The notes beneath the pieces were generated by a model, which worked only from the letters and a program-made list of their open reading frames with translations, searched no databases and was not told where the DNA came from. A stretch of DNA of 64,000 nucleotides from a virus (lineage: Duplodnaviria; Caudoviricetes), in the IMG/VR virus record IMGVR_UViG_3300012665_000528, positions 1 through 64,000 of that record. One strand, written 5' to 3'. Shown one piece after another: positions 1,827 to 45,935 of this stretch. How positions within the stretch are numbered: position 1 is the stretch's first letter; the number at the start of each line of letters is the position of its first letter. A program made the translations under genes and the position numbers.

Positions 1827-2123
1827 TTACAAACCTTTATCAGTAATAAATTCTTGAAGACCTGTCATGATCTTTTCAATGGCAGATGCAATTTCAGGAT
1901 CTGATTCAGCTTCTTTAAAAACATCGAAGTAAGAAACAGCCTTAGCGTAGTCTGGAAGTTGTTCGATGTTTCCTCCTAAGTCTCTGTAAGGAGTCAGACG
2001 CATAGCAACTGATGCTCCGATGATTCCTCCTTCTTGAACTAGAGGAGAGATAGCTAAGTTAACTAGAAGTAAAGGATACTCTACTCCGTCTACGATTGTT
2101 GGGTTTGTTGATGTGATTGCCAT
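1827..2123 (-). CDS. Hypothetical structural-region protein
   Basis: 98-aa ORF tightly packed in the minus-strand operon. Confidence 0.7.
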   Translation of the reverse strand: MAITSTNPTIVDGVEYPLLLVNLAISPLVQEGGIIGASVAMRLTPYRDLGGNIEQLPDYAKAVSYFDVFKEAESDPEIASAIEKIMTGLQEFITDKGL

Positions 2124-3418
2124 TATGTATATGTATTTGTTAGTCGGTTAGTCCAAGATGCACTTAATGCCTGGGTGATTAATATGTTTCCGTCCGTAAG
2201 GACTTGAATCCTTGTTATCTTCCAAACGTTTGCTCCTTCAGAACTTAACTGAGGTGCTCTTCCTACGTAAGAATATACTCCTTGATAATCGTGTCTTACA
2301 GTTGCAGTTACAGCAGAGTTGACCCACTTTGTTCCGTTGTAAGATAAGCTTTGTCCTATCTGTAGGTCTGTGAGTTGAACGTCTGAAAGATTAGCGATTT
2401 GTGAAATCAATCCAGTTAACTGAGAACCATCTACTGCAGGGAGTTTACCTGAACCATCTAATTTTAATAACTGGTTTACTCCGTTAAATGTATTTCCTTG
2501 AAGAGTTACATTAGAAGACAAACGGGAATCAGAAAGGGTGCCACTTGCTATATTCGAGGCTACCGTAGTGTCGACATTTGCTACGTTGCTTAATCCTACT
2601 TGTGCTTTAGTGACGTTGTGAGGATTAGAAGTATTGCCTGTGTGACTGGTTAAGGTATTTTTTGTTGTTGTGATTTGTGTTTGGGTTTTACCAAACGCTT
2701 GTAAGATTGTGTCTGTAGGAGATATTTGTGCATCTGCTCCATTACTAAACCCCGTCAAAGCAGAAGCTATAACTCTAGCTTGAGTAAAGTAGAGATTAGT
2801 TCCCTCCGACAAACTGGTGGTATCTTTTGTTGCTAGCGAGTTATCAAACAAAGTACTTGAATAATACTTATTTGTTGACCCTTGACTGATGTTATCACTA
2901 GTTAAAACTACATCACCACTTAAAGTATTTACAGACCGTACATTACCAGTACTGCTTATTGTTAGTCTGTTTAGATTATCATCGTAAGTCAGGGTAACGT
3001 TTGTACCTGCTTGAAGTAAAGCTGCTACCCTATCATCCACCCTTTCCTCAGTAAAGTATTTAGGAGTTCCTTCAGGGATATCATCAGTAGTCAAAGAGAC
3101 GTATCCTGTCTTTGTGTTGACGCTTCTTACATCTCCTGTTGCGTTTATTGTGATTGTTTCGTTGTTGTACCCAAGAGTAATATTACTTCCTGCTTGGAGC
3201 ATCTGGAACACCTTGTCTTTTACCTTGGTGTTCGTGTAATACTGATTGATTCCACCCTCAGATAAATTATCACTTGTCTTACCTACAAATGCAGCTAGTG
3301 TAACTGTAGTTACTTCAGCCAAAGAAGTTATCCCGTTCTGTAATACAACTACCCTATCGTTAGAAGCTAAACTTCCTACGAGTGGTAATTGGGAGACTCT
3401 TGTTTCTTTAGTTGCCAT
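2123..3418 (-). CDS. Tail-fibre-like structural protein with internal repeats
   Basis: Four TSDNLSEG/TTDDIPEG/TSDNISQG/DTTSLSEG + (N/K)(Q/K/L)Y(Y/F) repeats, two NVRSVNT repeats, HTGNTSNPHNVTKAQVGL fibre motif. Confidence 0.75.
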   Translation of the reverse strand: MATKETRVSQLPLVGSLASNDRVVVLQNGITSLAEVTTVTLAAFVGKTSDNLSEGGINQYYTNTKVKDKVFQMLQAGSNITLGYNNETITINATGDVRSVNTKTGYVSLTTDDIPEGTPKYFTEERVDDRVAALLQAGTNVTLTYDDNLNRLTISSTGNVRSVNTLSGDVVLTSDNISQGSTNKYYSSTLFDNSLATKDTTSLSEGTNLYFTQARVIASALTGFSNGADAQISPTDTILQAFGKTQTQITTTKNTLTSHTGNTSNPHNVTKAQVGLSNVANVDTTVASNIASGTLSDSRLSSNVTLQGNTFNGVNQLLKLDGSGKLPAVDGSQLTGLISQIANLSDVQLTDLQIGQSLSYNGTKWVNSAVTATVRHDYQGVYSYVGRAPQLSSEGANVWKITRIQVLTDGNILITQALSASWTNRLTNTYT

Positions 3419-31274: not shown

Positions 31275-31500
31275 AGTAACCCTAACGACTTATAATTTCT
31301 TCCGTAAGAAAAAAGGACAGAGAAATACTGTTTTTCTCTTTTTCTTTCTCATTCCACAATGTTCGTTGTCTAGAACATCCACTCAAGTACTAGTAAATGT
31401 ACATTTGGGTTGGTTGTTTTGGTCACTTACGCTAACCATTTTAAAAGATTATGATACTAAACGAACAATACTTAGAAAGCACGGCAGTAAGCCAAAGTAG
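31258..31500 (+). CDS. Small hydrophobic hypothetical protein
   Basis: ORF track; fills the gap between neighbours. Confidence 0.4.
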   Translation: MMIGNRVTLTTYNFFRKKKGQRNTVFLFFFLIPQCSLSRTSTQVLVNVHLGWLFWSLTLTILKDYDTKRTILRKHGSKPK

Positions 31501-32422
31501 ACTTAAAAAGCTGCTGCTACACCCACAGATGTATCTGAATGCCTATAGCAATTCAGAATTAGAAGAGCCTAAAGAAACTTCAGTTATAGGAGATGCAGTA
31601 GACTTAATCTTAACTCAAGGAGATGATATCTTTCACAATAGTTTTTATATTACCGATGCAGAAAGACCTACAGCACAGATGGGAGACTTTGTTTGGAACT
31701 TATATATAAACCGAAATGATTCTAATGCAGAACAAATTGCATATGATACTGTAGGATTTAAGAGAGACAAAATAGAGAAGGTTCGTGAAAGATTTGATAA
31801 GGAAGGCAGAATGTACTATGAAGCTTTGTTAGAGGCTGAAGGTAAAAGTACTATCAGCACACATCAGATGTCTAAAATTAATGCAATCGTAGATAGTTTA
31901 AGGACAAATCCTTTTACTGCAGATTGGATTATGGGTAATGACGATTTAGAGCTATATAAACAAGTTGTGCTGGACTTTGAGTACTTAGGTGTACAATGCA
32001 AAGGTTTAGTGGATTTGATTGCCGTAGATCGCAAAAGATGCATCGTATATCCAATCGACATAAAGACTAGTTCATCTTCTACAGGGACATGGGCACATAC
32101 TATGTTTTGGAAATTCCGATATGATATCCAAGCAGCATTTTATACCTTTGGAATTAAGAGCAGTGGTTTACTTAATGAGTTAGGTTGTGATAAGGTACAT
32201 CCGTTTAGATTTATCGTAGAGAACCAAGACTTTCCAGGTAATCCTCTTATCTATCAGGTAAGTGATGCTATTGCACAGCTAGGTCAATTTGGAGGTACTG
32301 TAGATGGTAGAACTTACGAAGGGTTTCATCAAGCTATTGAAAGATATAAATGGCATACAAAGAACGACTTATGGCAATATCCAATGCACGATTATATAAA
32401 CAACGGTATAAGGACCATATAA
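31451..32422 (+). CDS. PD-(D/E)xK exonuclease (DUF3799/RecE-like)
   Basis: SQSRLK, CKGLVD, DIKT, YDIQAAFY. Confidence 0.85.
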   Translation: MILNEQYLESTAVSQSRLKKLLLHPQMYLNAYSNSELEEPKETSVIGDAVDLILTQGDDIFHNSFYITDAERPTAQMGDFVWNLYINRNDSNAEQIAYDTVGFKRDKIEKVRERFDKEGRMYYEALLEAEGKSTISTHQMSKINAIVDSLRTNPFTADWIMGNDDLELYKQVVLDFEYLGVQCKGLVDLIAVDRKRCIVYPIDIKTSSSSTGTWAHTMFWKFRYDIQAAFYTFGIKSSGLLNELGCDKVHPFRFIVENQDFPGNPLIYQVSDAIAQLGQFGGTVDGRTYEGFHQAIERYKWHTKNDLWQYPMHDYINNGIRTI

Positions 32423-33285: not shown

Positions 33286-33313
33286 CAAATATACCTCTAA
33301 GTTAATAACTTTG
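33286..33313. promoter_or_regulatory. Back-to-back Bacteroidota-type -7 elements
   Basis: TATATTTG on minus (33286-33293) and TAACTTTG on plus (33306-33313). Confidence 0.6.
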
Positions 33314-33739
33314 CAAATTAAGATGTCAAAACTAAGTCACCAAATCAAGAAAAATAAGCTCTACATGGACATAGCCCATAGAGTAGCTAAAGAGTCGTAT
33401 TGTAAACGGTTAGAGGTAGGTGCTGTTATAGTCAAAGATGGGAATATTATATCATTCGGATATAACGGAACACCTAGTGGTATGCCTAACAAATGTGAAG
33501 AGAACGATGTAACTTTGAGCTACATTCTTCATGCAGAGTCTAACGCTATTACAAAAGCTTGTAAGAGCACTATAAGTACATTGGGAGCAAGTATGTATAT
33601 CACACACTCTTGTTGTCTTGAATGCGCTAGGCTAATTATACAAAGTGGTATTAAAGAAGTATACTATGCAGAAGAATATAGATCACCCGCAGGACTTAAC
33701 CTACTTAAGAATTGTAAAATAAAACTAACCAAACTATAA
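33311..33739 (+). CDS. dCMP deaminase (likely start 33323)
   Basis: HAESNAI and CxxC (CLEC) Zn motifs; FGYNGTPSG. Confidence 0.9.
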   Translation: MQIKMSKLSHQIKKNKLYMDIAHRVAKESYCKRLEVGAVIVKDGNIISFGYNGTPSGMPNKCEENDVTLSYILHAESNAITKACKSTISTLGASMYITHSCCLECARLIIQSGIKEVYYAEEYRSPAGLNLLKNCKIKLTKL

Positions 33740-34470: not shown

Positions 34471-37400
34471 ATGCCTAGTAATCCATTATTACCTCAGGAG
34501 TTATTGTCCTTCATTCAAGCATCTGCACAGAATGGCATTAATCCTCCCAGCCTGCCTTCTGGATATGTTTATGCTACTCCACCAACAAGTGACGGGCATT
34601 TATACTTAAGAAGGTTTGATGCTGCTTATATTCAGACAGGAATCATTGACCCTAATCGTTTGGGTACAGGGGCTACAGGTGCAGGTAATCTTTACTTAGC
34701 CGATGACGGAGTGTGGAAACCTGTTGCAGGAGGAGGTGGAGGTGGTGATATGTATAAGGCCACTTACGACACAGACAATAGTGGAATCGTAGACAAAGCA
34801 GAAGCCTTAATGACCTTGGGAAGAAACTCTACAGGGGCTGTTCTACGTAAGGGTACAGTAATCAGAATACAAGGCTCAACAGGGCATCTTCCTAATTTTG
34901 TAAAAGCCCAAGGTAACAACGATGCTAACTCGGCACAAACCTTTGGTGTAGTTGCAGCGGACATAAACAACAACTCAGATGGGTATGTTATTGTTCAAGG
35001 AACGATTGATACTTTAGATACTCGTTCAGTAGCAACACATCCTTTTACAGACGTAACTTTAGCAGATGGAGATATTCTTTATCTTCACCCTACCATAGCA
35101 GGTTATCTTACAAATGTAAAACCTTCTGCCCCTCAACACTTAGTTTACGTAGGGGTCGTAACTAGAACCTCTCCAACTAACGGAACAATAGTTTATCGTA
35201 TTCAGAACGGATACGAGTTAGATGAGATTCATGATGTAGCTATTTCTTCAAAGACCAATAACGATCTTTTGGTTTATGAATCGGCTTCATCTCTTTGGAA
35301 AAACAAAACCTTCTCAGCAATCTTTGGAGGTACTCCTTTGGTCTCAGTTCCTACACTTGATGCAGTTACAACGGCTGGGAATACGACTACTAATGCGATT
35401 ACTGTAGGTGGGTTTACAAGCAATGCAAGTTCAACAATTGTTGGAGCAGCCGCAGGAACCATTGGTACAAGAGTTCTCACAATAGAGGGAAGTCATCCCG
35501 AAATATGGTTTAAGGATACTTTTGTAGGAGAGCCAAGTTTTGCGTTAAGTCAATATGGAAGTGCTTTTTACTTTGCAAGAACATCAAGTACAGGAGTATT
35601 TACAAGTTATGCAGGAGCAATAGTTGGCGCTAGATGGTCTTTTGGGCATGGTGGAAATCCTACTGCTACTGTACATATTAAAGGTTCTGATGTATTGTCC
35701 TCTACAAAAGCATTCCTTGTTCAAAACAGTTCTCCTAGTGATTTATTAACTATATGGAATGACGGAGCAGTAGGAATTAACACATCTACCAATGCAGGAT
35801 ATAAGTTAGATGTTAATGGGACTGCGAGAATAGTAAATAAAACAAACATAGGTAGTGAGACCGTTTCTCAAGGATCATTATACATTGGGCATAACGGAAC
35901 CGCTGGTGGAAGTAATGGAACCTCAACTGTATTCTTTGTGTCTCAGTTTGGAAACTATCCTTATAGACTAGGGGCTGAAGGTAACGGATATGACTTTTAT
36001 TTAAGACAAGCAAATGGAGGTCAAGGGAGTATAAATATTGACTTTAGTGGATTAAATAGTATTTCTTACAACATAACAAATACAAATGTATTAAATCAGT
36101 CTTTTGGAAAAAGCGTTGTTATAGACGCTAAAATGAGCCTTAACTCCTACTTAGCAATAGGAACACGTTTTGGGTATAGCGACTCAGTTACAGCAGGCGA
36201 TAGTCCGTTGATATTCTTTAGATCAATGAGTGGCAGTTACTATGATAAAACATTAGATGCTGCTGTGACTATTCGTAATGGTTTACCAACAGTTGCTGAT
36301 AATAACATTACCAAAAATACAGCATATTGGTATAGAAACGGATATATCGGAATAGGAACTTCAACAACCCTCTCTGCAACAAATACATTAAAAGGTGCAA
36401 TTACTATAAACCAAGGGACAACAATAGGATATCAGAACCTAACCCCTGGAAGTTTATCGTCTGTAATTACGTCTGGAACATCTGCAACAGTAACATTTAC
36501 TCCAAACAACGGAAATGGAGTTCCAGGATACGATATTATTGTAGGTACAATTATCACAGCCAACGGAGTTAGTAGAAGAGTAACAGCAGTAAATTACCAA
36601 AGTGTCACAGTTGACAGCGCAGTAGATTGGAGTGCAGGATATAACTATACTTATAGAAATCCATACGTAAGTATAGCGGATGGGTCTACACCAATTTTTG
36701 ATATATCTCCGTCAGGAAACGTAGGTATTGGAACAACAAGTCCAACAGCTAAGTTACATATAAAAGGAACAGGAGATAGTTCTGTTTGGATAACTACAGA
36801 CGATTTTAATGGTGGAACCAATACTGGATCTGTTATAAGAATTGGAACAAGAAATTCAACTGGAAATACGGCAGGTTGGATTGACACATTAAACAACGGT
36901 TACTCTTCTTATGGGAACTTAATGCTTAATGCTTTTGGCGGAAACGTACTCATAGGCACTACTACCGATGCAGGATATAAGTTAGATGTTAATGGGACTA
37001 TGAGGGTAACTGGAGTTGCGTCATTAAGTTCTATAGCATCTCAAACAACTATTGTTAATGGAGCAGTATTTAATGCAGATACAATCAGTTTTAATATTAT
37101 TGGTGGTAGAGGAAATAATCAAGAAGGAATTTTAAATCTAACTAGCACAGTAGGTTCTTATACTCCAAACTTTGGTGGAATTAAGAATATGCTTAATATT
37201 GGTGGAAACTTTACAGTAGGAACATCAGCTACAGGAGATGTTAACTTTCTTAATATTAATCCAACAATAAATTACCCAGTTGGGTCATCTGGAACTCAAA
37301 GAGGAATATACATTAATCCTACATTAACAAGAGTAACCAACTATAAAGCAATTGAAGTAGCTCAAGGTGTGATAGTTACGACTTCACCAATCACAGCAGC

Positions 37401-39477
37401 CTCACTACTTGCACAAGGAGTATACTTTAACAACACTTTAGTAGCAGCAGCAAACAATGACGTATTAGTAGGACTAGACATCAATCCTACGTTTACAAAT
37501 GGTGCGTTTACGGGGGTACAGAATTGGGGTCTTAGAGTACAAAGTTCAAATATACTTTTAAGTACTACTAAAGGAATTTATTTTGGAAACTCAGGTTATG
37601 GTATTACTGGAGAAGTAGGACTTGGTTCTTTAAGTTTTTATACCAACTCAACCGAAAGACTTAAGATTGATAACGCAGGAGCAATTACTGCTGGAGGTAC
37701 TGGTCGTTTTGCTAGTATTTTTTTAACAGGTTCTAACATTCAACTGTTAAATGGATTATGGTATTTTAACATTGAAAATGATGGTAATGGTCTTCAAGTA
37801 AAAAACGTTACTGGAAGCAACACTGTACCGTTTAGAATATTTAAAACAGATAACGTAGCAATAGGAACAACCACAGACTCAGGATACAAACTAGATGTAA
37901 ATGGTAGTAGTAGGGTAAAAGGCTTGGATAATAGTTCTTCAACTACAGCATTTTTAGTACAGAACACGGGAGGATGGGATAATTTAAAAGTAACTAACGA
38001 TGGACAGGTTTCAATTGGTGGTAATGGATTGACAACTTTTCCTTTGCTAGTTTATGGGAATAGCGGTTTACAGATACGAGTTGGTAACAGTTTTTTTTCT
38101 TACGATGCAGTCAGAACAATTCGTTTTATAAATTCAAATAACGGAATACCTTTAAATCATGAAGTTGTTAACCAAGTATCATCAACTGATAATTCAAATT
38201 ATGTATATTTTAGAAATCAAACTATACAAACGGCAGGTTCAACTGCTCCTTGGAAAGGTATTTCTATTGAAACTCCTGTTAACACGCAAACTTCAGCAAT
38301 AGTTACGCAACTTTCAATTACACCAACGTATGATCTACAAGCAAATACAACAAGTGCATCTATTCAAAGGGGCATATATTATAACCCCACAATTACAACA
38401 TTACAAACTGCAATACACAGAGCAATAGAGACAACTAGTGGTGATGTAATATTCAATACACAGACAGCAACAACCAACGCAGGGCATACCACTATGGCAA
38501 TCGGTGGTAGCACTGGAGTTTATTTACAAATGTACGTAGGTACAAATCCAGCAGCACAAACACTAAGAGGACAAATCTGGGCAGTAGGAAATAACTTACT
38601 ATTTAATAACCCATCAACAGGGTATCTAGGGCTATATACGACTCTTTACAGTGGTATTACTGTTTGGCCAACTACGGGTAATGTTTATGTAGGAGCAAGT
38701 CCGTCAACGGATACTGGGTATAAGTTGGATGTGAGTGGTACGGCTAGAGTTAAAACTGACCTAAAGATTGAGACAGGGACCGGTGGCTTGACGATAGAGG
38801 GAGATGCATCTGGCTACCCTACTTTATCAATAAATACATTGCGCTCTGGCGTAGACAGAAGAAATTGGAAGTTTGCAACAGAGCAAGTTACCGTAGGTGA
38901 TTTTATTTTCTACAGAAGTTCTACAGGGGGCGGTGCTGCAAATACTGTTGTGTACGCTGTTTCTAAAGATGGTAATTTTGGGTTAGGCACGTCTTCTCCA
39001 TCTTACCCTTTCCACATCTCATCTGCTGCGGCTGCTAATATATACGGAACAGTTCAATCTACAAGTGCAAGTGGAACAGCAGCGTGGGTAGCCTTTAACG
39101 ACCAGAGCGATAACGTGGTTTATCGTGTATTTGGTTCTACTGTTGGTGGTACACAGTTTGGACAATCTCTAGTACGTAGTGCAAGCTTAATGGTTAACTT
39201 GGGAGGTGCTGGTAAGTTCTTAATCGGTAGCTATTCTGCTACAGACGTGGTATTTGGAACAAGTGACACAGCCAGATTACGCTTAGTTGACTCTACAGGA
39301 AACTTCTTAATAGGCACAATGACAGATGCTGGTAATAAACTAGAAGTAAGTGGGTCAATAAACGCCACAGACTACAAGGTCGGTAATGTGGCAGGTTGGA
39401 ATGGAATCATTAACATCCCTACTATGCCTCCTGTTATGATAACTGTAACTAATGGAATTATTACAAATGTTATGTAA
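34471..39477 (+). CDS. Modular tail fibre / receptor-binding protein
   Basis: 1668 aa, G/T/N/S-rich; five (I/V)G(T)xxxx(A/S/T)G(Y/N)KL(D/E)VxG linkers and several GIGTTSP motifs. Confidence 0.85.
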   Translation: MPSNPLLPQELLSFIQASAQNGINPPSLPSGYVYATPPTSDGHLYLRRFDAAYIQTGIIDPNRLGTGATGAGNLYLADDGVWKPVAGGGGGGDMYKATYDTDNSGIVDKAEALMTLGRNSTGAVLRKGTVIRIQGSTGHLPNFVKAQGNNDANSAQTFGVVAADINNNSDGYVIVQGTIDTLDTRSVATHPFTDVTLADGDILYLHPTIAGYLTNVKPSAPQHLVYVGVVTRTSPTNGTIVYRIQNGYELDEIHDVAISSKTNNDLLVYESASSLWKNKTFSAIFGGTPLVSVPTLDAVTTAGNTTTNAITVGGFTSNASSTIVGAAAGTIGTRVLTIEGSHPEIWFKDTFVGEPSFALSQYGSAFYFARTSSTGVFTSYAGAIVGARWSFGHGGNPTATVHIKGSDVLSSTKAFLVQNSSPSDLLTIWNDGAVGINTSTNAGYKLDVNGTARIVNKTNIGSETVSQGSLYIGHNGTAGGSNGTSTVFFVSQFGNYPYRLGAEGNGYDFYLRQANGGQGSINIDFSGLNSISYNITNTNVLNQSFGKSVVIDAKMSLNSYLAIGTRFGYSDSVTAGDSPLIFFRSMSGSYYDKTLDAAVTIRNGLPTVADNNITKNTAYWYRNGYIGIGTSTTLSATNTLKGAITINQGTTIGYQNLTPGSLSSVITSGTSATVTFTPNNGNGVPGYDIIVGTIITANGVSRRVTAVNYQSVTVDSAVDWSAGYNYTYRNPYVSIADGSTPIFDISPSGNVGIGTTSPTAKLHIKGTGDSSVWITTDDFNGGTNTGSVIRIGTRNSTGNTAGWIDTLNNGYSSYGNLMLNAFGGNVLIGTTTDAGYKLDVNGTMRVTGVASLSSIASQTTIVNGAVFNADTISFNIIGGRGNNQEGILNLTSTVGSYTPNFGGIKNMLNIGGNFTVGTSATGDVNFLNINPTINYPVGSSGTQRGIYINPTLTRVTNYKAIEVAQGVIVTTSPITAASLLAQGVYFNNTLVAAANNDVLVGLDINPTFTNGAFTGVQNWGLRVQSSNILLSTTKGIYFGNSGYGITGEVGLGSLSFYTNSTERLKIDNAGAITAGGTGRFASIFLTGSNIQLLNGLWYFNIENDGNGLQVKNVTGSNTVPFRIFKTDNVAIGTTTDSGYKLDVNGSSRVKGLDNSSSTTAFLVQNTGGWDNLKVTNDGQVSIGGNGLTTFPLLVYGNSGLQIRVGNSFFSYDAVRTIRFINSNNGIPLNHEVVNQVSSTDNSNYVYFRNQTIQTAGSTAPWKGISIETPVNTQTSAIVTQLSITPTYDLQANTTSASIQRGIYYNPTITTLQTAIHRAIETTSGDVIFNTQTATTNAGHTTMAIGGSTGVYLQMYVGTNPAAQTLRGQIWAVGNNLLFNNPSTGYLGLYTTLYSGITVWPTTGNVYVGASPSTDTGYKLDVSGTARVKTDLKIETGTGGLTIEGDASGYPTLSINTLRSGVDRRNWKFATEQVTVGDFIFYRSSTGGGAANTVVYAVSKDGNFGLGTSSPSYPFHISSAAAANIYGTVQSTSASGTAAWVAFNDQSDNVVYRVFGSTVGGTQFGQSLVRSASLMVNLGGAGKFLIGSYSATDVVFGTSDTARLRLVDSTGNFLIGTMTDAGNKLEVSGSINATDYKVGNVAGWNGIINIPTMPPVMITVTNGIITNVM
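35792..36999 (+). repeat. Identical 32-bp direct repeat in the tail fibre (35792-35823 and 36968-36999)
   Basis: ATGCAGGATATAAGTTAGATGTTAATGGGACT at both positions. Confidence 0.85.
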
Positions 39478-40091: not shown

Positions 40092-40125
40092 AACACCCCG
40101 CCATTGTTTTTAGGTCGTTGCTCAG

Positions 40126-40151
40126 AACCCCTCTTCGTGAGGGGTTTTTTT
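40126..40151. terminator. Terminator at convergence of the fibre and lysis operons
   Basis: AACCCCTC-TTCGT-GAGGGGTT + T run. Confidence 0.8.
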
Positions 40152-40448: not shown

Positions 40449-41081
40449 TTACTGCACCTTATACTTAGTGTAATCTGTAGTAGCGGGTGCTTCGTTTGCA
40501 AAGTAATACACTTCTTTTTTATTTCCAAACTTTATGGTCTTATAAAAGGCAGTAGGTATAGTTGCACCTGTTGGTAGTTTAGCTGCTTTAGGGCCATAGA
40601 TAACCCTTATCTCTACTTCTACTTTAGTTGTCTTAGCCAACTCTCTCTCGTAAGCTTCAAGTAATCTCCAAGCACCTCTGTTAAGTTTCTCGTGTTGTAA
40701 GATACAATTCAAGTAAGAGAACGTCTGCCACAGAGTCTCTCTGGTACAGTTAAAGTCAGCAGCTGGAGCACAGTGTCCTTTGTCCCAAACATTTCCTTCA
40801 TAATCCTTACCATCAGATGTCTTTACACTATCGTTAGTGTAGAAGTCCATTCCTTTACGAGGATAAGAACCTGTAGGGCATTGTACCGTGTACCACACAC
40901 GTTTAGGTTGTTGCAGAATCTCAGAATAAACACAAGAATAGATCGGTGTTTTAATCAACACGCTGTCTCTTTGAGCACTTAGAAAGGTGGTAACAAAGAG
41001 GAATAAAGATAAAGTAAAGTTTTTCATACACAAATGTATGTTATAAATCCATTCTTTCCTTCTTAGCAAAATGCTGGTCAA
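40449..41081 (-). CDS. Secreted DNA/RNA non-specific endonuclease (NucA/EndA-like, His-Me finger); likely start 41027
   Basis: Signal MKNFTLSLFLFVTTFLSA|Q; WDKGH, LNRGAWRLLE, IPTAFYK. Confidence 0.88.
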   Translation of the reverse strand: MTSILLRRKEWIYNIHLCMKNFTLSLFLFVTTFLSAQRDSVLIKTPIYSCVYSEILQQPKRVWYTVQCPTGSYPRKGMDFYTNDSVKTSDGKDYEGNVWDKGHCAPAADFNCTRETLWQTFSYLNCILQHEKLNRGAWRLLEAYERELAKTTKVEVEIRVIYGPKAAKLPTGATIPTAFYKTIKFGNKKEVYYFANEAPATTDYTKYKVQ

Positions 41082-41190
41082 AGAAAAAACTCAAACCAAA
41101 GGCCATAATAATAATCATAGAAGCATTAAAGAAGCATACGATGTATACCTCTGCTACTTTTGCCCACTCTTGTATAGATAGTAGTATCAT
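41041..41190 (-). CDS. 49-aa single-TM protein (not in ORF track)
   Basis: MILLSIQEWAKVAEVYIVCFFNASMIIIMAFGLSFFFDQHFAKKERMDL*; ATGA overlap at 41187-41190. Confidence 0.65.
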   Translation of the reverse strand: MILLSIQEWAKVAEVYIVCFFNASMIIIMAFGLSFFFDQHFAKKERMDL

Positions 41191-41744
41191 TTTCTTGAAT
41201 CTTTAGAATCTGTTATGTGCTTGACTCCCATTATCGTTCCGATAATAGAAAAACAGTTAGTTAGAATTATACCAAACATATTACTCCAGGTACTCTCAAT
41301 GATCTTAGAGTCTAATCCTTTGCTTAATACGTAAAGATAAAGTACAGTTGTAAATACACAGACAGCAGCTACAGCTCCTAACGCTACTTTTACTATCAAT
41401 CCTATGAGTTCAAACTGAGTCTTCTTCTGAAGGGTCTCTAAATCATCTAGGGCTACTTCTCTTAACTTCTCAGACTCAGACAAAGCTCGTTTCAATTCAA
41501 GCATTAACTTCTCTTTCTCTGCTTGACTATCTATTAGGTCTTTGTTCTGGGACTGTACTTGCTTGGTTACTTCTAGTCTTTTTCTACGAGTGTCTTGGTC
41601 TTTGGTCTTAGCCTCGTCTAAGTAGTCTTGAAAGTCTTTATCTTGAGTTTTTACTACTTTAAGTAAGTTCCCCTCTAGTGCAATCTTCTTAGATTTGTAG
41701 AGGGAGACAAGAGAGCTTTCAATATCTTTACCAAAGGATATCAC
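41187..41744 (-). CDS. Coiled-coil + two C-terminal TM protein coupled to the response regulator
   Basis: Charged helical N-part; hydrophobic LIGLIVKVALG...YVL and MFGIILTNCFSIIGTIMGV. Confidence 0.8.
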   Translation of the reverse strand: MISFGKDIESSLVSLYKSKKIALEGNLLKVVKTQDKDFQDYLDEAKTKDQDTRRKRLEVTKQVQSQNKDLIDSQAEKEKLMLELKRALSESEKLREVALDDLETLQKKTQFELIGLIVKVALGAVAAVCVFTTVLYLYVLSKGLDSKIIESTWSNMFGIILTNCFSIIGTIMGVKHITDSKDSRK

Positions 41745-42178
41745 TTATATACTTTAAAGGGAGCAGTTTTACTCTTATACCCGTCGTAGTCCTTACGGAA
41801 GGCTTCTAGTCTAGGTTCAATCTCATCTGACTTAATTATCCAGAACTGAGCACCAACAGCTTTTGCTTTCTCTATCTCCTGTTTATCATCAGAAGAAGAA
41901 ATAATCCCTATCACTACACCATTGCCGTACTCAAAGTTAATCTTACGAATCAATTCTATGCCGTCAAAAGACGAACCTATAATATTAAGGTCAACAAATA
42001 CGCAGTCAGGCTTCTCTTCCATAGGGCCTTCCTGAAACCACTTCTTAAATAGTTTATCAGCTTCATCAGAAGAAGTTAAACTCTGCAAACTTAAAGTAAT
42101 GTCTAACAGACTGCAAGAGTCTTCAAACACTAGGTGGAATAAGTCTTCATCGTCTACAAGTAATATTGAGTCTATCAT
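41741..42178 (-). CDS. Single-domain response regulator (REC, CheY/Rcp1-like)
   Basis: LLVDDED acidic pocket, phosphoacceptor D63 (FVDLN), S94, K116; no output domain. Confidence 0.93.
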   Translation of the reverse strand: MIDSILLVDDEDLFHLVFEDSCSLLDITLSLQSLTSSDEADKLFKKWFQEGPMEEKPDCVFVDLNIIGSSFDGIELIRKINFEYGNGVVIGIISSSDDKQEIEKAKAVGAQFWIIKSDEIEPRLEAFRKDYDGYKSKTAPFKVYK

Positions 42179-43368
42179 TTTATTTTTATCTTAAGTTTAG
42201 TTCCTGATTCTAGTTTCTCTGCAAATACTTCAAACTTATGCTCTTCCATAATTGCAGTACATATATTTAGTCCAAGACCTGTTCCTGTTTCTTTCTGCCC
42301 TTCTTTTCTTTTATAGGGCTGAGACCACTGGATTAAGTCTTCTTGAGACATTCCCCTACCGTTGTCTTGAATGATTAGGTAATCTCCCTCTACAAAGATA
42401 CGCACTAACTTAGTACCTGAATCGTTGTACTTGAGTCCGTTCCTAATAAGGTTGTCTACAGCTGTACAGAACAAAGACTCGTTAACTTCAATCTCTGGTA
42501 ACTCTTCTATAACTACTTGTTTCTCGTAAGAGGTAGAAGACAAGTAGCTGTGTAGGATATCTTTAAGGTTGTGTAACTTAAGTTCTAGGTGAGCATCTTG
42601 CTTAACCAAGTTAGTAAATTCTTTAACTCCATTATACACCTTTTGAGTATGAGTCAACCCTTCCTCTATCATTCTTAACGGAGCGTCTATCTTTAACTCT
42701 TTAATCTGCTCCTCAGTCAGTCTTCTCTTTAAGGAAGAAAGTCCACGAGGAATGTAAGTGTTGATTCCAGAGTGCATGTCATGTCTTAAAATTTTAGCAG
42801 CGTGTTCTAAGTAAGAATTTTTCTTAGCAATCTCTGCTTCAATCTTTTTCTTCTCAGTAATCTCAGTAGCAATTAAAAGGATTTTGTAAACCTCTCCATA
42901 GGGATCTTTGATAGGGTTAAAGTTCCCGTACAGCCAAACTCCATTACAGTTATACTCTCCTTGTTTAAAGTAACCTATCCTTAAGTGTGTCCAGAACTCC
43001 TTCCACTCTTTCATAGGAGAATCGTCTACATCTCTGTGACTTGTTATTTCTCCAAAGAGTTTCTTAAATTTAGCGTTAGCATTAAGTATCTCTCCGTAAG
43101 TATCAAACTCTACCAGTATATTACTAGAGTTAATTGCATGAAAGGTAGCGTCAATGCTTTGAAACTTATACCTAGCCTTCCTGACAAACTCAATACAACC
43201 AAAGAAAAAGAATGGTAAGAAAGCTACCACTAACCAAAACTCTAAGATTGCCTTTTCGTAATCTAACGAGTTGTACTTTAGTACAACTGTAGACTTAGTA
43301 TAAAGTAGACAAAGCATGAGTATGCCCGCTACTACTATACTTATTCTAGCTCTTGTGCTTAACTGCAT
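42175..43368 (-). CDS. Membrane sensor histidine kinase (2 TM - PAS - HisKA - HATPase_c)
   Basis: H-box LRHD (H196), N-box DNLIRNGLKYN, G1 QDNGRGM, G2 GTGLGL; PAS segment VEFDTYGEILNAN...FW..L..G...YGNFNPIKD...ATEIT. Confidence 0.95.
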   Translation of the reverse strand: MQLSTRARISIVVAGILMLCLLYTKSTVVLKYNSLDYEKAILEFWLVVAFLPFFFFGCIEFVRKARYKFQSIDATFHAINSSNILVEFDTYGEILNANAKFKKLFGEITSHRDVDDSPMKEWKEFWTHLRIGYFKQGEYNCNGVWLYGNFNPIKDPYGEVYKILLIATEITEKKKIEAEIAKKNSYLEHAAKILRHDMHSGINTYIPRGLSSLKRRLTEEQIKELKIDAPLRMIEEGLTHTQKVYNGVKEFTNLVKQDAHLELKLHNLKDILHSYLSSTSYEKQVVIEELPEIEVNESLFCTAVDNLIRNGLKYNDSGTKLVRIFVEGDYLIIQDNGRGMSQEDLIQWSQPYKRKEGQKETGTGLGLNICTAIMEEHKFEVFAEKLESGTKLKIKIK

Positions 43369-43371
43369 ACA

Positions 43372-43761
43372 TTATAAGATAAAGCTAAATATAGCTAACA
43401 AGGACATACCCAAGAATCCGTACTTATACATCTTCATCTCAAGGTTCTTGCGGTCTATCACACGATTAAGTCTAGTTACTTCTTTCTTTGACTCTTCTAC
43501 CATAACCTGATAGTTAGGGACAATAGAATCCCTATACAAATTAATTTGTTGACTGTCTAAATGGATTACGTTCTTAAGAACAACTACTCTCTCTCTGGCT
43601 TTGATACCTTTGAGGAATTCGTTATTCAACTCCTTTAGCGGTAAGCTGTCTAGAGATTGTGAGTAAGAACTTTGTGCCGTCAATATCAGGCATAGTGTCA
43701 AGAGCAATCTGAATAGTGTCATACTTGAGGTTGATTTTTTCATAGTAACTAAATTGTTCAT
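43372..43761 (-). CDS. Spanin-like protein: signal peptide, coiled coil, C-terminal TM
   Basis: MTLFRLLLTLCLILTAQSSYS|Q; ends GFLGMSLLAIFSFIL; overlaps the upstream gene out of frame. Confidence 0.55.
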   Translation of the reverse strand: MNNLVTMKKSTSSMTLFRLLLTLCLILTAQSSYSQSLDSLPLKELNNEFLKGIKARERVVVLKNVIHLDSQQINLYRDSIVPNYQVMVEESKKEVTRLNRVIDRKNLEMKMYKYGFLGMSLLAIFSFIL

Positions 43762-43942
43762 GTTTAAGTGTAGATAAAGAATCTACCCTACTGAGGAAAC
43801 TTTCGTTGCGTTTCTCCATAGAGTCCATGTAAGACATAAACTTCTCTTCACTACCGCTACTTAAGCTTTGTCTTTCCCATAACAAAAAAGCTACTGTGAT
43901 TAGTAGTAGCCCTATAACAATAACTTCAATCTTGTTTTTCAT
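43622..43942 (-). CDS. i-spanin (Rz)-like: N-terminal TM + coiled coil
   Basis: IEVIVIGLLLITVAFLLW then helical region; follows the holin. Confidence 0.55.
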   Translation of the reverse strand: MKNKIEVIVIGLLLITVAFLLWERQSLSSGSEEKFMSYMDSMEKRNESFLSRVDSLSTLKHEQFSYYEKINLKYDTIQIALDTMPDIDGTKFLLTISRQLTAKGVE

Positions 43943-44345: not shown

Positions 44346-44578
44346 TATTCAGTAGTAGTAATAGGCGGGTATGTAGTATTAAATACAGTTTGTAGTTCTG
44401 TTATCCAAGCCTTCTCATCTGTTGTTTGATATAGTTCAGGTTGACCGCTTGTCATTTGTTGGTCTGGATCAACATAACCATAATTAAAAATACTCGTATC
44501 AGTATAGGTGATAAAGTATGTTCTCTGTGTTGGGAATTTTATCTCACTCATTATATACCTCCGTCTGTTATTGTCCAA
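44345..44578 (-). CDS. Hypothetical protein (likely start 44551)
   Basis: TAATG coupling to both neighbours. Confidence 0.65.
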   Translation of the reverse strand: MDNNRRRYIMSEIKFPTQRTYFITYTDTSIFNYGYVDPDQQMTSGQPELYQTTDEKAWITELQTVFNTTYPPITTTE

Positions 44579-45561
44579 TTGTTAGGTGCAAAGTCTAAAA
44601 TATTCTTACCTACTTGAGCTTCTGCAGTGTACTTAATAGTTCCAAAATTAATATCCAAATTTGATTGTACAGGTCGTGAACTCCATCCATTATAAATAGC
44701 ATCAAGATTGGCTGCTGAATAGTTGGCTGCGGTTTTGCCCGCCATAAAGTTGGTTAAAATCAATGCGTTTGACACATTCCAACTTCCAATATTTTGGTTG
44801 AATGCGGATGCCCCGCTAAACATTGACTGAAAAGTTGTTACATTAGATACATTCCAATTGCCTATGGGCTGATTAAATGCAAACGCATTAATAAACATAT
44901 CACGCATATTAGTGACAGCTGATGTATTCCAAGAGTTAATAGGTTGATTAAATATATTTGCACTTGCAAACATACTTTCCATATTAACAGCACTTGAAGT
45001 TTTAATTTGCCAATTGTTTATATTTGGTGACCCCCCATTGTTAAATATATAATTATTAGAAAACATATAATAAAAACTATTTACATTAAATACGTCCCAA
45101 TTTCCTACAGCACTATTAAAATTACTACAAAGTCTAAAATAATTCGCTAAACTCGTACTTGTAATAGTAGGAGCATCTGTTGCACTTGCAGTTAGATTTG
45201 TACATCCATAAAATCCAGCGTCAACACTAATATTTAAACTACTCCAGTTAATAATATTAAGGATTTTTAATTTATCTCCTCCATTATTAAACTGCCATCC
45301 TAAAATAAAACCCGTTACACTAATAGTGTAAGTACCTGCACTTGCATAAGTGTGAATTGCTAAGGTATGGTTTGTAATTGTTTCTACAGTTCCGTCCCCC
45401 CAATCTACTCGCATATTTAATCCTGTAGAAGTAGTAAGGGGCATTCTAAACTGCGTGCTAGTACTACTACCTGCTGAGGTATTATTTGTATTTACTGTAA
45501 ATCTAAAAGGAAGTTGATCTACTATACCACCTCCTACTAGTCCAATACCAACACCAATCAT
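44551..45561 (-). CDS. BspA/DUF285-repeat protein with PKD-like N-terminal domain
   Basis: VDWGDGT; repeats FNQPINSWNTSAVTNMRDMF, FNQPIGNWNVSNVTTFQSMF. Confidence 0.85.
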   Translation of the reverse strand: MIGVGIGLVGGGIVDQLPFRFTVNTNNTSAGSSTSTQFRMPLTTSTGLNMRVDWGDGTVETITNHTLAIHTYASAGTYTISVTGFILGWQFNNGGDKLKILNIINWSSLNISVDAGFYGCTNLTASATDAPTITSTSLANYFRLCSNFNSAVGNWDVFNVNSFYYMFSNNYIFNNGGSPNINNWQIKTSSAVNMESMFASANIFNQPINSWNTSAVTNMRDMFINAFAFNQPIGNWNVSNVTTFQSMFSGASAFNQNIGSWNVSNALILTNFMAGKTAANYSAANLDAIYNGWSSRPVQSNLDINFGTIKYTAEAQVGKNILDFAPNNWTITDGGI

Positions 45562-45901: not shown

Positions 45902-45909
45902 CAAATTTA
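45902..45909 (-). promoter_or_regulatory. Bacteroidota-type -7 element TAAATTTG for the lysis/TCS operon
   Basis: CAAATTTA on plus strand. Confidence 0.55.
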
Positions 45910-45935
45910 AGTTTATTTCTAAATAAGTCAAGTAG

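Follow-up and report, generated by a model that had tools for sequence, protein, structure and literature searches.

A phage-encoded unit of histidine kinase, single-domain receiver, and coiled-coil membrane protein with a possible role in lysis timing

Systems in which a HisKA-type histidine kinase signals to a single-domain receiver, such as CheA/CheY, DivJ-PleC/DivK, KinA/Spo0F, and Cph1/Rcp1, provide the reference for the phage locus described here. This locus lies in the window, the first 64 kb (64,000 nucleotides) of a 75.9-kb linear IMG/VR virus record (IMGVR_UViG_3300012665_000528; CheckV completeness of ~65%), and it encodes a membrane histidine kinase, a CheY-like receiver, and p185, a 185-residue membrane protein (together, the trio). 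As in those systems, the histidine of the dimerization and histidine phosphotransfer (DHp) domain is followed by an acidic residue, and the N, G1, and G2 boxes are found. The receiver likewise has the acidic pocket, the phospho-aspartate, the Ser/Thr, the aromatic switch residue, and the lysine, and its output would also occur by contact. Unlike these systems, the trio is phage encoded, its receiver is highly diverged, its DHp domain falls below the Pfam HisKA model, its third gene has no known family, and no cellular orthologues of it were found.

The staphylococcal kinase LytS has a role linked to membrane potential. LytSR is a two-component system that governs the holin-like and antiholin-like proteins CidAB and LrgAB (PMC2996381). 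Like the trio, it ties a membrane sensor kinase to holin-type proteins and murein hydrolase activity, and the concept of timed cell death is common to both. However, LytS combines a 5TM-Lyt/GAF sensor with a His_kinase-type core and LytR is a transcriptional regulator with a LytTR DNA-binding domain, whereas the trio has a receiver without a DNA-binding domain, a kinase of the HisKA-like PAS type, and no homology to Cid or Lrg. No Pfam or NCBIfam match to the 5TM-Lyt, LytTR, or CidA/LrgA-type families was found in the gene block around the trio; LytSR is an analogue only.

In T4 lysis inhibition, the holin T and the antiholins RI and RIII provide superinfection-dependent control of lysis (PMC11413866). 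There, as proposed here, contacts between membrane proteins beside the holin let a lytic phage fit the time of its lysis to a signal that it senses. The T4 mechanism, however, consists of direct protein binding in the periplasm, without phosphorylation, and has no sequence or fold relation to the trio, in which the partner is not fitted to one holin family. No PHROG or Pfam match to T, RI, or RIII was obtained in ten neighboring proteins.

The intramembrane-sensing kinases LiaS and BceS have two transmembrane (TM) helices joined by a loop of ~10 residues, as does the trio kinase, and some relatives of the latter consist only of the two TM helices, the DHp domain, and the catalytic ATP-binding (CA) domain. 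In contrast to LiaS and BceS, most trio kinases, including the one in the window, add cytoplasmic PAS or GAF domains, and one relative is soluble; the trio receiver also lacks the DNA-binding output present in LiaR and BceR. The kinase and receiver genes found sporadically in cultured phages (PHROG 857, 10912, and 731) gave weak profile matches to the trio proteins. Searches of the literature found no account of a two-component system within the lysis cassette of a phage, nor of the trio.

The kinase, the receiver, and their constant partner p185

The gene order of the trio was explored in IMG/VR loci, of which 56 were fetched by the kinase and the best 80 of 462 matches by the receiver, these best 80 all having at least 81% identity. 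The kinase lies directly upstream in 118 of 118 receiver loci, and a p185 homologue lies directly downstream, or one open reading frame (ORF) away, in 112 of them; at least some of the six loci without p185 are interrupted by contig ends. The search with p185 itself gave at least 543 viral loci. In 63 of the 67 new loci fetched from this search, kinase and receiver are found upstream, and the other four are truncated by contig ends. The genes are tightly packed, with ATGA overlaps at 60 of 80 kinase-receiver junctions and at 45 of 80 receiver-p185 junctions. Judged from this gene order, kinase, receiver, and p185 are an obligate three-gene unit, and the constant partner of the kinase/receiver pair is p185, not a holin. 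The pair had originally been predicted to be a complete two-component system from the window alone; it is intact, but it represents two-thirds of a trio.

The kinase matches Pfam HATPase_c above the cutoff (5e-13). Its H box, LRHDMHS, contains H196 followed by D197. H196 aligns with the phosphohistidine of HisKA-type kinases in the PDB, and the H196-D197 pair is matched in the alignment to the H-D/E of 8f71 and of HK853-type chains; the Pfam HisKA model gave no match to the DHp domain. Across 28 to 81 relatives there is little or no variation in the N box (DNLIRNGLKYN), G1 (DNGRG), and G2 (GTGLGL). These data agree with the original prediction of a kinase with all catalytic boxes and two TM helices. 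The helices span residues ~5 to 29 and ~37 to 60, and the loop that connects them has ~7 to 11 residues, which is shorter than the ~15 residues first given for this periplasmic segment. The AlphaFold model (overall predicted local distance difference test [pLDDT] score of 79) contains a long DHp helix (residues 171 to 205) bearing H196-D197, and a CA domain.

A cytoplasmic PAS domain, which had been described as shortened, is present in the model at residues 84 to 169 with a complete five-stranded fold (pLDDT of ~90), so that it is slightly trimmed rather than truncated. PAS_3 and PAS_9 of Pfam were found in kinase relatives at 70% identity. The profile of the kinase family has its best match, at 7.5e-20, in the flavin-binding PAS domain of MmoS (3ewk), with Aer, DosP, and LOV domains next, and is thus closest to flavin and oxygen sensors; in the kinase itself, only the HR motif (H111-R112) aligns with DHRIV of MmoS. 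The domain is predicted to be of the flavin type.

The receiver matches Pfam Response_reg at 2e-8 (34.7 bits versus a cutoff of 30.2), and its closest profile matches in the PDB are CheY, Rcp1, and RcpA. D63 and K116 do not vary in the alignment, even among homologues of 30% identity, where D10 is still at least 90% conserved; the sequence also has S94 and the aromatic switch residue W113. There is no output domain, only a conserved C-terminal tail of ~25 residues ending in FKVYK, and the length of 145 residues is constant across 67 distinct sequences. The intact REC-only regulator of the original prediction (D9/D10, D63, S94, and K116) is thus upheld. Kinase and receiver very probably form a functional pair, in which the phosphate would be transferred from H196 to D63.

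The AlphaFold model of p185 (pLDDT of 81) shows a small N-terminal domain, a single very long helix that runs into TM1, and a second TM helix, TM2. The coiled-coil helix differs in length between lineages. TM2 is near-invariant in the alignment and places N155, T162, S166, G169, and G173 on one helical face, as a stripe of polar and small residues. No family for p185 was found in Pfam, PHROG, NCBIfam, or PADLOC, and the sole match in a fold search against viral models was an uncharacterized homologue.

Five forms of the kinase were observed: TM-TM-DHp-CA (300 residues), TM-TM-PAS (as in the window), TM-TM-GAF-PAS(-PAS), TM-TM-PAS-PAS, and a soluble GAF-PAS-PAS form. The sensor domains vary while DHp/CA, receiver, and p185 remain constant, and p185 is retained even beside the soluble kinase. 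Since p185 is kept with a soluble kinase, and since the TM region is the least conserved part of the kinase, p185 is better placed downstream of the receiver than as a membrane co-sensor. It is fairly likely that p185 is the output or partner of the receiver, which it would contact directly. In the opposite arrangement, p185 would serve the input of the kinase as a modulator or scaffold resembling LiaF or YycHI, and the true output of the receiver would lie elsewhere. Kinases with very short loops often need accessory membrane proteins, on which those of the LiaFSR and Bce systems depend, and p185 is both membrane anchored and translationally coupled. However, such an accessory role would not be expected to combine a poorly conserved kinase TM region with a nearly invariant TM2 in p185, nor to persist with a kinase devoid of TM helices, and the order kinase-receiver-p185 couples p185 to the receiver. 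We regard the accessory role as quite improbable.

Searches among longer proteins with p185 and its alignment, aimed at one-piece sensor-hairpin fusions, returned only two proteins, P0273 (347 residues) and P0274 (508 residues), on contigs of 1.4 and 1.9 kb. Each joins a p185 piece to something unrelated, which is a GEVED-like repeat protein in one case and a combination of HisKA with an SNF2 helicase in the other. Because their contigs are so short, both proteins resemble chimeras of the assembly rather than natural fusions. The p185 hairpin alone gave no match in an Atlas search, and together these searches are a weak negative for such fusions.

Distribution, backbones, and selection

A search of 1.84 billion representative proteins with the receiver gave only 183 matches at an E value of ≤1e-3 and 65 at ≤1e-10, a striking scarcity for one of the commonest bacterial domains. 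It was found in 2 of 185,579 species genomes, both times on contigs of metagenome-assembled genomes (MAGs) that carry the whole trio. A 13.5-kb contig of a “Verrucomicrobia” MAG (L124; WBXG01000047.1) contains a two-kinase module, in the order PAS-PAS kinase, 245-residue protein, second kinase, receiver, and 226-residue p185 homologue, followed by the large and small subunits of a T4-type topoisomerase II. This contig is probably T4-like phage DNA mis-binned into a bacterial MAG. Neither the receiver nor the trio is present among the cultured phages of INPHARED, where the only match to the kinase is a PAS stretch of 92 residues, and no NCBIfam equivalog approached its cutoff. The kinase search gave more than 5,000 matching proteins, and receiver or p185 was found on hundreds of IMG/VR contigs.

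The ratio of nonsynonymous to synonymous substitution rates (dN/dS) is 0.016 to 0.13 for all three trio genes. The receiver has a dN of 0.06 to 0.07 where that of the kinase is 0.30 and synonymous sites are saturated, and its identity is 83 to 96% across backbones that share little else, again with saturated dS. As far as these searches and rates allow us to judge, the trio is essentially virus-only and under strong purifying selection.

The original prediction had named a recent host-derived passenger under relaxed selection among the findings that would speak against it. A recently captured host pair without phage function would be in keeping with two-component genes being typically bacterial and with the acquisition of host genes by phages. 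However, because the receiver family is essentially virus-only and all three genes are under strong purifying selection, the trio is not a recent host passenger. The few matches among representative proteins and species genomes, the lack of a near NCBIfam equivalog, dN/dS values of 0.02 to 0.13, and the fixed gene order in hundreds of viral loci effectively refute this explanation, which was ruled out.

The conservation of the receiver, far greater than that of kinase or p185, raises a different possibility, namely that the receiver, once phosphorylated, attaches to some conserved protein of the host and reprograms the infected cell, with p185 only tethering or buffering it at the membrane. 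A component of motility, division, the envelope, or transcription could be such a target. Near-constancy at saturated dS is the pattern expected of a receiver that fits an unchanging host partner, and single-domain receivers such as CheY and DivK commonly have several partners. On the other hand, the trio stands at the 3′ end of a late/virion block and not among early genes, p185 is always present, and no host protein can be named; nor can it be assumed that the hosts of all carriers share one target. Host-directed signaling is, in our judgment, unlikely.

The backbones that carry the trio are diverse. A 98%-complete phage of 30.6 kb shares with the phage of the window only the trio and one fiber gene, and a 99%-complete 68-kb phage has 12 of its 74 genes in common with it. 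A 98%-complete relative of 116 kb carries a crAss-type RNA polymerase. Further carriers are incomplete contigs of 150 to 155 kb, a T4-like contig, and a fragment of 41 kb with an estimated completeness of 14%. By this comparison the trio is a cassette on phage backbones with little else in common, not a trait of crAss phages.

For the phage of the window itself, the first description as crAss-like is reasonable because of similarities in two proteins, neither of them a capsid protein. Its family-A DNA polymerase is 33 to 38% identical to those of crAss-like phages (IAS virus, cr108_1, and DAC15), and a 2,702-residue protein distantly matches crAss-type virion RNA polymerase genes (22 to 25% identity over ~500 residues). 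The label is to be read with the incompleteness of the record in mind.

Two records from the same sample, IMGVR 3300044568_006268 (L040; 129 kb, labeled provirus) and 3300044568_003163 (L041; 294 kb), contain a soluble-kinase trio at identical coordinates. Some trio carriers may be integrated elements or very large phages. Two stretches are shared between the window and trio carriers: 223 residues of a 1,668-residue protein (34471-39477, plus strand) are 90% identical to part of an 880-residue protein of the 68-kb phage (G008 34608-37250), and a fiber-like protein of 431 residues (2123-3418) is 56% identical to its counterpart in the 30.6-kb phage. Both suggest that modules for host recognition have been exchanged between phages whose hosts are probably the same.

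The late gene run and its lysis-type neighbors

In the window, the trio belongs to a tightly packed, co-oriented run of minus-strand genes that stands after the giant virion proteins. The run consists of a 100-residue protein, the PKD/DUF285 protein, a 77-residue protein, the holin candidate, the 106- and 129-residue proteins, kinase, receiver, p185, the 49-residue TM peptide, Endonuclease_NS, and a 93-residue protein. The ORFs and their order around kinase and receiver are those first described, including a DUF285 protein, a holin (with a marginal score), and a secreted nuclease with a signal-peptide-like N terminus (Table 1). Direct reading of the sequence gives TAA-TGT-ATG, a 3-nucleotide gap, at the junction of the 129-residue gene with the kinase gene, and ATGA overlaps at the next three junctions, between kinase and receiver, receiver and p185, and p185 and the 49-residue peptide.

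Table 1. Positions of the features discussed in the window
Feature	Position	Strand	Basis
GC-rich hairpin with T-runs on both sides	40124..40148	.	Terminator scan; between convergent gene blocks
Secreted nuclease, Endonuclease_NS, signal-peptide-like N terminus	40449..41081	-	Pfam 8e-24; PHROG nuclease
49-residue single-TM peptide	41041..41190	-	ATGA-coupled to p185; restricted to the lineage of the window and nearby ones (tblastn across loci)
p185, third trio member, coiled-coil/2-TM protein, 185 residues	41187..41744	-	Alignment; AlphaFold model
Stand-alone CheY-like receiver, 145 residues	41741..42178	-	Response_reg; D9/D10, D63, S94, W113, K116
Membrane histidine kinase, 397 residues	42175..43368	-	HATPase_c; PDB alignments; AlphaFold model
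129-residue protein, o- or u-spanin-like topology	43372..43761	-	Lipobox-like/signal N terminus (translation, hydropathy); overlaps 106-residue gene
106-residue protein, i-spanin-like topology	43622..43942	-	N-terminal TM, helical remainder (hydropathy)
Holin candidate, 139 residues	43926..44345	-	Phage_holin_4_1, 23.1 bits versus cutoff of 22.2 (marginal); PHROG 199 holin, 5e-5
PKD + DUF285 protein, probable surface/fiber accessory	44551..45561	-	Pfam DUF285 2.5e-37, PKD 3.7e-6; upstream in the same run

The GC-rich hairpin is likely the end of the minus-strand transcription unit, where it faces the convergent plus-strand block. As to promoters, the Bacteroidota-type pattern (TTTG ... TAnnTTTG) is not more frequent in the window than expected by chance, and sigma-70-type promoter-like sites are rarer in it than in shuffled sequences. 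In the 72-nucleotide gap ahead of the 100-residue gene, positions 45902-45931 (minus strand) read TTGACT...TAAATTTG, the latter element being similar to TAnnTTTG, the -7 motif of Bacteroidota. The absence of a visible integrase stands, as Phage_integrase has no match in the 76 kb of the record, which is only ~65% complete. PADLOC defense-system models gave no match among seven proteins of the block. The plus-strand replication block contains a dCMP/cytidine deaminase (8e-27; 33311-33739, plus strand) and a DUF3799 PDDEXK-like nuclease (31451-32422, plus strand).

The holin role of the 139-residue protein is a marginal prediction, and its gene is 68% identical in nucleotides to one annotated as a holin in Flavobacterium phages. 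Together with the RNA polymerase similarities, this match suggests hosts of the Flavobacterium type. In the 116-kb relative, holin copies occur at both ends of the linear record (G001, positions 402-818 and 115830-116180), with identities of 99% and 78% to the holin of the window; the ends may represent a terminal duplication that has diverged, or else two strains may have been joined during assembly. The two genes first called spanin-like keep this label for their topology only, as no family match was obtained for either in Pfam or PHROG and NCBIfam and PADLOC gave no assignment. The 129-residue protein has a lipobox-like site, LTLC, but also a hydrophobic C-terminal segment. In four related loci, one site beyond the downstream end of the trio has local similarity to this pair, but a tie by homology to spanin-like pairs elsewhere could not be confirmed.

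Endonuclease_NS stays behind the trio, with a small TM peptide between them, in the lineage of the window and in the 116-kb relative (L011 10425-11000), and it is absent beside the trio in other lineages. Its role is possibly the degradation of periplasmic or extracellular DNA. In this arrangement the trio could be a sensor of superinfection or competition: the kinase would detect the perturbation of the envelope by a second phage and elicit lysis inhibition or exclusion, and in the lineage of the window foreign DNA, whether entering or released, would be degraded by the presumably co-transcribed nuclease. The position of the nuclease in both lineages, the TM hairpin with minimal loop, which is the layout of intramembrane sensing, the relatives without PAS, and the precedent of T4 lysis inhibition (PMC11413866) are consistent with this explanation. 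It is weakened by the confinement of the nuclease to two lineages, by the existence of a soluble kinase variant, by the cytoplasmic nature of the PAS/GAF inputs, and by the lack of homology to RI, RIII, or T of T4, and it appears quite unlikely.

Elsewhere, depending on the lineage, the neighbors of the trio include the same holin family, an Amidase_2 endolysin, and an endolysin-like protein of PHROG 3000/33083, as well as DUF5675, spanin-like pairs, and small TM proteins. These lysis-type genes vary in order and lie upstream or downstream. When kinase lineages were defined as 29 clusters at 85% identity, a holin, amidase, or endolysin-like gene was found within 3 kb in 11 of the 29, and a looser tally that includes spanin-like and DUF5675 genes gave 16. 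The linkage to holins that the original prediction proposed to seek in viral databases thus exists in part. The association between trio and lysis genes is real in these loci and frequent but not universal, and in small genomes chance would be expected to account for some of it.

A possible phosphorelay for lysis timing

Taken together, these observations are consistent with a phage-specific phosphorelay that runs from the kinase through the receiver to p185 and ends in a late membrane event. The kinase would be anchored in the inner membrane by its TM hairpin, almost without a periplasmic loop, and would sense a cytoplasmic or membrane-intrinsic cue through its flavin-type PAS domain; because of this PAS type, redox or energy state is the likeliest cue. 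Autophosphorylation on H196 would be followed by passage of the phosphate to D63 of the receiver which, having no output domain, would act by contact. It would most likely act on p185, at the N-terminal domain and coiled coil in the cytoplasm, after which the near-invariant, polar-striped TM2 would act in the membrane. The resulting event would most likely be the timing of permeabilization, i.e., of lysis, because the trio is apparently co-transcribed with late genes and recurs beside holin, lysin, and spanin-like genes. The output in lysis timing is a tentative assignment, to which we give somewhat less than an even chance, and the whole chain is held with similar caution, as a leading account that falls short of being probable.

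Several points weigh against this account. Lysis timing by the trio is plausible, its effect on lysis being deduced from the loci. Thirteen of the 29 lineages have no recognizable lysis gene nearby, nor do several large-phage loci, and in the near-complete 116-kb relative the block of trio, peptide, and nuclease is separated from either holin copy by 37 kb or more. Small phage genomes bring any late gene near lysis genes by chance. Within the record, no endolysin was recognized, either when lysin families from related loci were used as tblastn queries or when ten larger ORFs were compared with Pfam. On the input side, the Pfam PAS models stay below threshold on the kinase of the window, and the binding of a cofactor (FAD, FMN, or heme) is a prediction from profile similarity. 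The extreme conservation of the receiver would fit a conserved host target as well. Finally, p185 is unlikely to be a classical antiholin fitted to one holin, because the neighboring holin families differ while its TM2 is invariant.

A more specific form of the lysis-timing account is that p185 is a new kind of lysis trigger, a depolarizing hairpin gated by the receiver. Binding of the receiver, in its phosphorylated or its unphosphorylated state, would lead to oligomerization of the coiled coil and to a proton leak through TM2, upon which any holin would fire, since a collapse of the membrane potential is what generally triggers holins. We consider this mechanism rather unlikely as it stands. 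If true, it would explain the movement of the trio as a cassette between unrelated phages, its differing holin and lysin neighbors, and the free swapping of sensor domains, and it would mean that lytic phages time their bursting via true signal transduction that reads the redox or energy state of the host.

For a lytic phage, no decision shapes its life history more than when to lyse the host, and the means of control known so far are holin clocks and, in T4, direct binding by antiholins. The trio adds two new protein families, a highly diverged CheY-like receiver and a coiled-coil/TM-hairpin protein, in a compact three-gene system where signaling from kinase to receiver to membrane output could be reconstituted. 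Its carriers span near-complete genomes of 30 kb to incomplete contigs of at least 150 kb. If the trio is indeed a virus-only phosphorelay with exchangeable sensors, many environmental phages would actively read the state of the cell that they infect.

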